Source: a virus (taxonomy: Duplodnaviria; Heunggongvirae; Uroviricota; Caudoviricetes). Taken from it: DNA of 14,289 nucleotides. Below are positions 3,001 to 6,000 of this stretch, piece by piece. Position 1 is the first letter of the stretch. Each line of letters begins with the position of its first letter. The stretch lies in IMG/VR virus record IMGVR_UViG_2713896784_000007. One strand, 5' to 3'. Position numbers: made by a program.

Positions 3001-6000
3001 TTTTTTTACAACGCTTTGTATTTAATAGTATTGTTTTTTAGCGTGGGTGTATTGCCTCGGCGATGTAAGGAGAGATCAGAATTGCGTTGTTTAGTGAGTT
3101 GTATCTATTTATTTTCCAATAAATACAATTGGTTATGTGTTTTTTTGGGCGAGAGGAAAAGAAAACCCGGCATGGAGGCCGGGTTGATGATTAGCGGTGT
3201 GGCCTTGAGCGATAATGCTCACACACATGTTCAAGATTTCCATGCCTTATCCGTTCATAGGCATTCACATGAACTTCTCGATCGAATTGGTCATTCAAAT
3301 TGTATGTAGACATCTGTGTTTTCTCATATTGGCGGCAGCCCTACAACCGCTTGAAAAAATGTACCAGACGCGCTAAGGTTACATCGCAAATATTGTGTAC
3401 CTTAACAAGGGCTCCTTTTGGAGGCTCTGGTTAAACAGCATCAATGTCGGACTGGGGAGTTGGACATTGTGCTGAATGCTTTTGCATTATTGAGGCCGAA
3501 CGTAAACCTTCAGAATTGAAGAGATGCGTTCGGCTTCTTCGTTTGTGATATCGTTAGGAATGCCTTTAATCGTTACTGTAACCCCTGATTCAGGTCGAAG
3601 AACTACTGGAAGATCATAGGTATGAAGTGCATTAGCCTTGCCTTCGACTTTTGTTGGTTCGCCAGTCAAATCTTTTTCCTCACTGGATTCTTTGTCAATC
3701 GGAGTGTATGGGATTTCTTCACCAGACTGGAAAGCTACAAACTTTTTGATTGCACTTTCCATGCGGCTTTTATATGCAGTAATGCTGCTGTCGCTAGGCT
3801 TCGGCTCAGTTGCGTTGATGTATCGCTCGGCAAGCTCATTCACATCAAGCTGAGTAACATCACCCATTTCCTCTTCTTGGACTACCGTTAAGAGGCGAGC
3901 GGATGAGTTTTTTAAATTTCGAGCGGTGGCCTCCTTCATTATGTTCAGCGACATAAGCTCTTCAAGGAAGTCCTTGAATGCCTGCACGCTAACGTTTGAC
4001 TTTGCCATTTGCTCTCTCTCTAAGTTATTGACTCAGATCGAGTTTATCCAGGAATTGATTTGCATGCAAGACTCAAGTCTTGAGAATTTCCGTTCAAGAT
4101 CCACTCTCAATAAAAAAGGCCGCACCTCTGCGACCTTTCATCTCCTAAATCTCTTTTCTCTTACCTAAAGAAACAGCAGGCTGGGTCAGCCCTAACAACT
4201 TCAAGTGCATCGGTCAGAGAAAGCTCCGTGCTATACAGGTGTTATTTCATATCTTTTTGCATCCAATAAATTTTCCATCTGTCCAGAGAGCGGATGCACT
4301 TGATTCTTGTTGATGGCAGGACGTTTTTTCACCTGCCTCACCCTGCCATACAGGACGCTGCTCACCGATATCTATCGTCCGGTCATTGATGTTATAGACA
4401 ATATCCAGATCATTACGGATATACTCAGATGGCCTTATGCTTTCAATGAATAGATGAACTTCTTTTTGACCGCTTGATACTCATGGCCATTAAACTCCAT
4501 CTATCCTCTTTACCCAAACGTCTCTTCAGGCCATTGGCTGGCGATAACTTTCCCCACAACGGAACAACTCTCATTGCATGGGATCATTGGATATTGCGGG
4601 TTTAGTGGTTGTAGAAACACCTGACCGCTATCCCTGATCAGTTTCTTGAAGGTAAATTCATCACCACCAAGTCTGGCTATGCAGAAATCGCCGGGCTCAA
4701 CAGCTTGCTCAGGGTCAACCAGAATTAACATCCCGTCAGGAAAACTAGGTTTGGAACCTGTTGGTGCGGTCATTGAGTTACCTTCAACCTCAAGCCAGAA
4801 TGCAGAGTCACTGGCTTTTTTGGTTGTGCTTACCAATCTCTCCGCATCACCTTTGGTAAAGGTTCTGAGTTCTGGAGAGAACATCCCAGCCTGAACATGA
4901 GAAAAAACAGGGTACTCATATTGTTTTTTAACTGGGGCCGATGAGTATTCGCCAACAGGTGAAAATGTCCCGTCGTGGTTGAATGATATGTTATCAATAC
5001 CAAGGTATTTAAACACCACACCAATATCACTAAGAGATGGATGACGAGATCCGCGCAACCAGTGTCCAATTCCACCCTGCGTCATACCTAGCTCTTCGGC
5101 TAACTTCTCTTGAGTTATGCCGAGCTCTTTCATTCTGGATCTAGCCAGTTCATACCATTTCATTTTCATGTCCTTATTATTACGCTCTGTACTGGAACCA
5201 TCCATGCACAATGTGTATTTTTACTTGTATTTGAGAAGTACATATTGTATTTTTTTTATTCGTGGTTACTATGGAGGGCATATGAGCAACCTACGAAAAT
5301 ATCGAGAGTCACTGAATATCTCTCAAACAACACTTGCTAAGGCAGTTGGATGCACACAGGGAGCTATCGGACATTGGGAATCTGGTCGTCGCTTCCCAGA
5401 CCTTAAAACATGCCGTGCTCTTGTTGCGTGTCTAAACAAGTTAGGCGCAAAAGTAAGTCTTGATGACGTGTTCCCGCCGGAGCACAAAGCCGCTTAATAA
5501 GCGGAGCCGCTCTTTGTAACAACGGACATTCGTCCTACGTCGCTGAAAAGCGAGTCCCAAGATATCTGACCAACTAAGGCCATATGCGTTTCCACGCATA
5601 CCTTTCAACTAACTATTCACTATTGGAAATCTTAAGAAATGGAACGAACAAGTTACAGCAAACTATCACAGCGCGACGTTGATCGCGCAGAAACAGATTT
5701 ACTCATCAACCTGTCAACGCTTACACAGCGCGGTCTGGCAAAGATGATTGGCTGTCATGAATCGAAGATAAGCAGAACGGACTGGCGGTTTATTGCTTCG
5801 GTCTTGTGTGCTTTCGGAATGGCATCAGACATCAGTCCGATTAGCAGGGCTTTTAAGTATGCGCTTGATGAAATCACAAAGAAAAAATCCCCGGCTGCCA
5901 CCGAGGATTTTAAGCAAATTGATATGCAATTCTGAGGGAATTACTGGATCAATCCACAGGAGTAATTATGACAAAACGTCGTAAGAAATACCAGGAAAAA

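Follow-up and report, generated by a model that had tools for sequence, protein, structure and literature searches.

What occupies the roughly 370 nucleotides between the repressor gene cI and the next terminator of an immunity region in which no convincing open reading frame (ORF) is found? The question is raised by a Caudoviricetes sequence of 14,289 nucleotides (IMGVR_UViG_2713896784_000007), referred to here in its full length as the window, where the interval 4138-4509 lies behind the cI stop codon (TAA, 4512-4510, minus strand, from the reading of the ORF). A preliminary description of this DNA had found no convincing ORF in the interval, which implied that it lacked recognisable coding ancestry, and proposed a small RNA, a micropeptide or the decayed remnant of former cargo. 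Once the reading frame is corrected, coding ancestry is clear and extends over a complete gene: the interval is a full-length DUF3024 pseudogene with three lesions, under relaxed constraint, placed in a variable cargo slot before a canonical terminator. The third proposal was the right one, and the remnant can now be named as a member of the DUF3024/PDC-S43 family disrupted by two frameshifts and one nonsense codon. We consider it very probable that this decayed cargo gene is passively transcribed as the 3' untranslated region (UTR) of cI and has no function of its own. It is an ordinary pseudogene in a well-studied phage, not a new RNA or peptide gene.

The homology was evident at the DNA level. 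A blastn search of phage records (word size 11) returned, besides the identical ones, 98 records at 80-90% identity, and those listed cover 86-96% of the 421-nt query. Every match in this range sits on an annotated gene, namely L0084 of 933W, orf62 of Stx2-86, or the "DUF3024 domain-containing protein" of P27, Stx2a_F451 and Salmonella ST160, and in each of these phages the matched gene adjoins the repressor gene on the same strand. Identity to the DUF3024 genes of 933W (L0084), phi24B, P27, SH2026Stx1 and Salmonella ST160 is about 81%. Alignment to related prophages, which had been suggested in the preliminary description, thus recovered homologous sequence, though as a DUF3024 gene that is decayed in the window allele. 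The three-way alignment of the window with 933W and ST160 is colinear from the last cI codons through the Shine-Dalgarno (SD) sequence, the ATG and the stop codon into a shared hairpin. From homology and the profile match, the pseudogene spans 4161-4500 (minus strand), with its ancestral ATG at 4500-4498 and its ancestral TAA stop at 4163-4161. Upstream of it, an SD remnant (AGAGGA, 4504-4509, minus strand) takes the place of the GGAGGA of intact alleles, as located by the alignment with 933W and ST160 and by the annotated ribosome-binding site of phage P27. The frame-corrected translation of 113 residues matches the Pfam family PF11225 with E=1e-22 and 80.9 bits (cutoff 24.9) over profile positions 4-111 of 112; the intact L0084 protein of 933W matches it with E=1e-30. 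L0084 also matches phrog_3467 and, over positions 1-115 of 115, the hidden Markov model of the PADLOC candidate PDC-S43 (E=4.4e-41), a score taken on this intact homologue, of which the window copy is the disrupted orthologue. The position as first gene after a prophage repressor, with an SD of its own, is common to 933W, P27, ST160, SH2026Stx1, a Yersinia prophage and the window.

No uninterrupted frame of about 113 codons is retained in the window copy. The first lesion is a 1-bp deletion in a purine run (4460-4467, minus strand), where intact alleles read GTC AAA AAR GAA GTT and the window reads GTCAAAAAGAAGTT. The second is another 1-bp deletion, in which a C has been lost from an A-run (4324-4329, minus strand; intact GAAACAAAC, here GAAAAAAC), and the third converts the family-invariant Trp87 codon from TGG to TAA (4242-4244, minus strand). 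Because of these two deletions and the nonsense codon, we classify the window copy as a pseudogene and not as a working DUF3024 member. Lesion 2 is also present in the contigs L013 and L014 (L numbers denote the sequences compared). The metagenome contig L013 has an intact-type 5' end, without lesion 1, joined to a window-type remainder with lesion 2, the TAA codon, the terminator and the following gene ECs1184; it follows that lesion 2 and the TAA can be passed on without lesion 1 and that a recombination joint falls within the gene itself. A further contig, L015, lacks the lesion-2 base together with one more in the same run, looks prone to homopolymer errors and was not used as evidence.

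The loss of constraint is visible in the substitutions too. Over codons 1-85 (Nei-Gojobori), there are 17 nonsynonymous differences between the window and 933W and 17 between the window and ST160, compared to four between 933W and ST160, which places 15 changes on the window branch and two on each of the others. Synonymous branch lengths are alike (10.5, 10.5 and 6.5). The ratio of nonsynonymous to synonymous change (omega) is accordingly higher for the window branch, at about 0.35, than for the intact branches, at about 0.06 (Fisher p=0.007). Pairwise omega between the window and 933W is still low (0.09), so most of the 19% divergence arose under selection and the inactivation is comparatively recent. 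Of 36 residues that do not vary among 18 intact homologues, which share 58-82% identity with the reconstructed window protein, five are altered in the window allele (A2E, Q41R, Y69C, R82Q and G113R), in addition to the stop at W87, while a leave-one-out test on the intact homologues gave 0-2 such changes each. No intact allele closer than 82% at the amino acid level was found in a collection of 5.8 billion proteins, the only closer matches being truncated reads of the broken allele; the partial proteins P0020-P0023, considered as possible intact copies, are all of this kind. E. coli genomes likewise fall into two classes without intermediates, 234 with the window allele and 158 with intact alleles at 80-90% identity.

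The window is the immunity region of a Shiga toxin (Stx) phage of the VT2-Sakai/Sp5 type, with 100% identity to public records. The 511 bases around the interval are 100% identical to Enterobacteria phage Nil2, VT2-Sakai, Stx2 phage II, YYZ-2008, 2851 and the PA-series Stx2 phages; matches to the interval came from 50 phage records, all of them at least 99% identical and the first 30 at 100%. Among 5,426 complete E. coli genomes, 234, most of them O157:H7, also carry the interval at 99% identity or more, which excludes an assembly artefact or a sequencing error as the origin of the interval and its lesions. In the Sakai genome (NC_002695.2), cI is ECs_1185 and the next annotated gene is ECs_1184. 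Public records leave the interval blank (VT2-Sakai), annotate a GTG-start ORF of 44 amino acids as a hypothetical protein (PA4), or, with the Prokaryotic Genome Annotation Pipeline (PGAP), give a CTG-start ORF of 53 amino acids; none of the records examined flags a pseudogene.

These small ORFs can all be placed on the pseudogene. It had been stated beforehand that only very short ORFs follow cI, and the largest on the minus strand within 4138-4509 do encode only 21 and 44 amino acids; the longest on the plus strand encodes 48. The ATG ORF of 21 codons (MEFNGHEYQAVKKKFIYSLKA, 4435-4500, minus strand), described earlier with its AGAGGA motif directly after the cI stop, is present as reported (SD at 4509-4504) and is the N-terminal stump of the pseudogene, with 13 codons in the DUF3024 frame followed by eight out of frame up to the stop. 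The GTG ORF exists as well, with a length of 44 codons and not the 43 given before; it lies at 4231-4365 (minus strand) and is the "hypothetical protein" of PA4, a reading of the pseudogene out of frame. The PGAP product in RefSeq O157 genomes corresponds, after conversion to window coordinates, to a middle fragment at 4247-4408 (minus strand). From their frames, both the 44-codon ORF and the 53-aa ORF are wrong- or partial-frame reads of the pseudogene. The result is therefore mainly a correction of annotation for a widely sequenced group of Stx2 phages, in which "hypothetical proteins" of 44-53 amino acids are pseudogene fragments, and it has no direct bearing on toxin biology.

Several arrangements of the neighbourhood indicate that the position after cI is a hot spot for cargo, since the same or a related repressor is followed by intact DUF3024, decayed DUF3024, nothing or unrelated genes. 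Nissle 1917 encodes an identical CI protein (WP_001302016.1) and then an unrelated cargo of two genes, a hypothetical one and a DUF1828 gene (L010 1605-2911). O111 strain 110512 has a 93%-identical cI allele followed only by a terminator and OL/pL, with no cargo (L012 2806-2950). In SH2026Stx1, the two genes after cI are DUF3024, intact, and one that resembles ECs1184 (40% identity). In Salmonella phage Oslo, DUF3024 is missing: after cI come the relic of a second cI end, the same terminator of hairpin and U6 and a 77%-identical ECs1184 homologue. Such differing cargo behind the same or related cI identifies the cI-distal slot as a point of cargo exchange. The boundaries of the exchanged unit may be given by repeats of the end of cI. 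In 933W, L0084 is flanked by a perfect direct repeat of 15 nt, TGAAGAGACGTTTGG, at a spacing of 371 nt (L004 2529-2543 and 2900-2914), and SH2026Stx1, whose cI allele differs from that of 933W, shows one of 19 nt (89%) with identical spacing (L017 1942-1960 and 2313-2331). In the window, alignments and a repeat search identify the last cI codons, TGAAGAGACGTTTGG (4514-4528, minus strand), as the upstream copy of the repeat that brackets the cassette in related phages, and a degraded downstream copy (10 of 15 positions) is found at 4145-4159 (minus strand) by alignment to the downstream copies of 933W and SH2026Stx1. The DUF3024 unit thus looks like a moron of 371 bp bounded by duplicated cI ends, which could be gained or lost by recombination between the repeats.

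Disruption of the interval is tolerated in natural strains. In O157:H7 strain 4276 (L008), the match to the window stops within the terminator stem, at ~4133, and an IS1203 element separates the interval from ECs1184; in O157:H7 strain ECP19-798 (L009), it stops within the pseudogene, at ~4411, with IS1203 between this point and cI. These insertions of IS1203 (IS629-type) at two sites in natural O157:H7 isolates are independent.

Downstream of the pseudogene, folding identifies the intrinsic terminator AAA-GGUCGCA-GAGG-UGCGGCC-U6 at 4112-4138 (minus strand), where a terminator had been expected. Its 7-bp stem is extended by A-U pairs and closed by a GAGG loop, and the 66-nt segment that contains it folds at -21.4 kcal/mol (z = -4.3); a simple consensus terminator scan did not list this hairpin. 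The hairpin is common to 933W, SH2026Stx1, Oslo and the window, with tails of none, U4, U6 and U6, respectively. In 933W, where it has no U tract, the operon continues through L0083-stk-L0081 up to tM. Expression of cI and stk in phi24B lysogens does not depend on induction (PMC4651098), as would fit a cI-distal operon that is active in lysogens of 933W-type phages. A promoter scan of both strands of the interval detected no promoter-like site, and the RNA of the interval is G-rich (C/G mostly below 1). Rho-dependent termination within the untranslated wreck was also considered, and a rut site is unlikely in RNA of this composition. With no promoter-like site and an RNA that would be a poor substrate for Rho, it is plausible that a long 3' UTR of cI extends to the terminator at 4138-4112.

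A simple sequence of events very probably accounts for the present state of the locus. In the VT2-Sakai/Sp5 lineage, the 1-bp deletions at 4329-4324 and 4467-4460 and the change of TGG to TAA at 4244-4242 inactivated the DUF3024 gene, whose sequence then drifted. Transcripts from the cI promoters would still run through the wreck of ~340 nt, on which ribosomes probably start at the surviving SD and ATG and are released after 21 codons. The RNA would end at the hairpin and U6 (4138-4112), leaving the cI mRNA with a functionless 3' UTR of about 400 nt.

The most serious rival to this reading is that the 3' UTR of the dead gene has been co-opted, either as an Hfq-binding small RNA (sRNA) or sponge cut from the cI transcript that ends at 4138-4112, or as a cis element for the stability of cI mRNA. 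The hairpin with its U6 is a good terminator, the A/G-rich stretch AAGAGAAAAGAGA lies immediately upstream of it, the G-rich RNA probably escapes Rho, and O157 carries many Hfq-bound sRNAs in its prophage regions (PMC4104026). Nevertheless, we regard co-option as improbable. The covariance-model scan proposed earlier was run against Rfam, and neither the gathering score nor a threshold of E<=1 brought up a family within the interval or close to it. The 405-nt transcript including the terminator folds with z = -2.2, a modest value which is not distinctive given that the intact 933W gene has -1.4, and the GGCAGG...CCTGCC hairpin pointed out in the preliminary description, although present (4315-4347, minus strand; arms at 4347/4337-4315, with GGCAGG occurring twice and lesion 2 in the loop), has arms that correspond to the W-Q-G and L-P codons conserved in all intact alleles. 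Orphan peaks of Hfq obtained by crosslinking and analysis of cDNA (CRAC) are absent from Sakai positions 1,256,682-1,257,053 (PMC4104026 Table S2, a table of orphan peaks only, with offsets between genome versions possible), even though the peak EcOnc20 is listed downstream, at about 3084-3209 of the window. Furthermore, the IS1203 insertions at ~4133 and ~4411 are tolerated and phage Oslo does without the whole segment. None of the known prophage sRNAs of enterohaemorrhagic E. coli (AsxR, AgvB and the EcOnc series) falls within the interval; EcOnc20 comes closest, about 1 kb downstream, and the Pas sRNAs belong to a different genomic context. An RNA antitoxin array like that of ToxIN was also looked for; as stated before, there are no tandem repeats (Tandem Repeats Finder, score >=30), and a repeat search found no direct repeat family. 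The small RNA option is thus left unsupported, and there is only a slim chance that the RNA of the dead gene was kept as a working part of the repressor transcript, for example as an Hfq-binding fragment at ~4165-4112. If it were, such a 3'-UTR fragment could tune the stability of cI mRNA or act in trans on host or phage RNAs, and maintenance of the Stx2 prophage lysogen would be linked to host riboregulation.

Two other explanations assign a role to protein products of the interval. The ORF of 21 codons (4500-4435) could be a functional micropeptide with a retained SD, coupled to the cI stop, and with AGAGGA located 4 nt before the ATG, directly behind the cI stop codon, its translation is likely as judged from the sequence. 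We hold a function for it to be very unlikely, however, as its first 13 residues are the N-terminus of DUF3024 and its last eight are read-through of a frameshift, the SD is weaker than in intact alleles, it is not among the Sakai small genes supported by ribosome profiling (Ribo-seq) at these coordinates, and contig L013 keeps the rest of the allele with an intact-type 5' end, so that it does without the peptide. The Ribo-seq supplements contain no coordinate in 1,256,4xx-1,257,2xx (PMC5597208, searched by coordinate prefix only and subject to possible version offsets). The micropeptide option, then, gains no support, and the ORF and its SD are best described as the truncated start of the DUF3024 gene. 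That the gene still works, whether by programmed frameshifting or slippage of the polymerase at the two A-runs or in the form of a truncated or split protein, is the least likely of all and close to negligible. Both 1-bp deletions do fall in short A-rich runs, but these comprise no more than 5-6 A, the frame would have to be corrected twice, independently, nonsynonymous change is elevated, and the TAA at Trp87 would still remove the last strand and the helix, including the invariant residues Y90, L96, A99, L100 and F111-G113.

Some points nonetheless weigh against a decayed and functionless gene. We infer transcription through the interval and termination at 4138-4112 from the sequence; the negatives taken from the Hfq and Ribo-seq literature are weak evidence; and AAGAGAAAAGAGA, which is ARN-like, could bind Hfq. 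The 234 genomes are near-clonal, so their conservation is uninformative on a residual RNA function, and covariation is equally uninformative, because the copies of the window allele are at least 99% identical and the distant relatives are protein-coding.

The intact protein of relatives has 113 amino acids and is in many of them the first gene of the cargo slot after cI. It stands ahead of an AAA_15/21 ATPase and a DNA methylase in a Yersinia prophage region (L020), of a DUF4325 pair in Pantoea (L019) and of an M78 peptidase in Enterobacter (L021); other downstream partners of intact alleles, listed among ST160 (L005) and 933W (L004), are a ParA-like protein and the Stk kinase. Judging by this gene order, DUF3024 recurs as the first gene of variable, defence-like accessory loci and is a candidate defence gene only. 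Full-text literature searches found no functional study of DUF3024 or PDC-S43, the latter being met only as a predicted candidate in the defence inventory of a strain; "DUF3024" itself retrieved no paper, and "L0084" was absent from the papers returned for L0084, 933W and stk. An AlphaFold2 model of the protein gave no convincing structural relative. The family is worth testing for defence activity, for which Sp5 provides a natural null allele.

Next to the interval, behind the terminator, lies ECs1184/orf22, an ORF of 173 amino acids (3487-4008, minus strand) that matches only phrog_2602 and has no Pfam or PADLOC match. It has been reported as impossible to delete from Sp5 and as possibly needed for stable lysogeny (PMC5155283), and as not a strong RNA binder (PMC7618764). 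Its 100-bp leader (4009-4108), for which no promoter was identified, contains the palindromes CTCAAGACTTGAG and TTGCATGCAA, whose conservation in Salmonella phage Oslo is ~90%. The unit has its own terminator at 3185-3164, and the orphan Hfq-CRAC peak EcOnc20 (PMC4104026 Table S2), converted to window coordinates (~3084-3209, minus strand), covers this terminator between ECs1184 and OL/pL. Elsewhere in the window, Rfam gave gathering-score matches to the lambda cIII thermoregulator, the Hfq-binding RNA isrK, the C4 antisense RNA and sRNA-Xcc1, listed at 1507-1565 (minus), 10397-10473 (plus), 10499-10582 (plus) and 11527-11610 (plus).

Compared with known systems, the pseudogene resembles three in different respects. 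With the CpxQ/SroC type of 3'-UTR sRNAs it shares a long 3' UTR, an intrinsic terminator and an A/G-rich tract upstream, but it shows no evidence of processing, Hfq binding, conservation or targets, and its sequence is explained by pseudogene ancestry. Like rexA-rexB of lambda, the cargo of the window lies on the same strand as cI, in the distal slot that separates cI from OL/pL, and would be expected to be expressed in the lysogen from the repressor promoters; unlike Rex, to which it has no relationship in sequence or fold, it is dead, and it is followed by a second, separate unit, ECs1184, with its own terminator. The closest counterpart is L0084 of 933W, to which the window copy corresponds in its position directly after cI, its SD and ATG, its length and, after frame correction, ~82% of its amino acids. 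L0084 is intact, whereas the window copy carries two frameshifts, a nonsense codon and an excess of amino-acid changes, and where the 933W operon runs on into L0083-stk-L0081, the transcript of the window is expected to end at the U6 that follows the shared hairpin.

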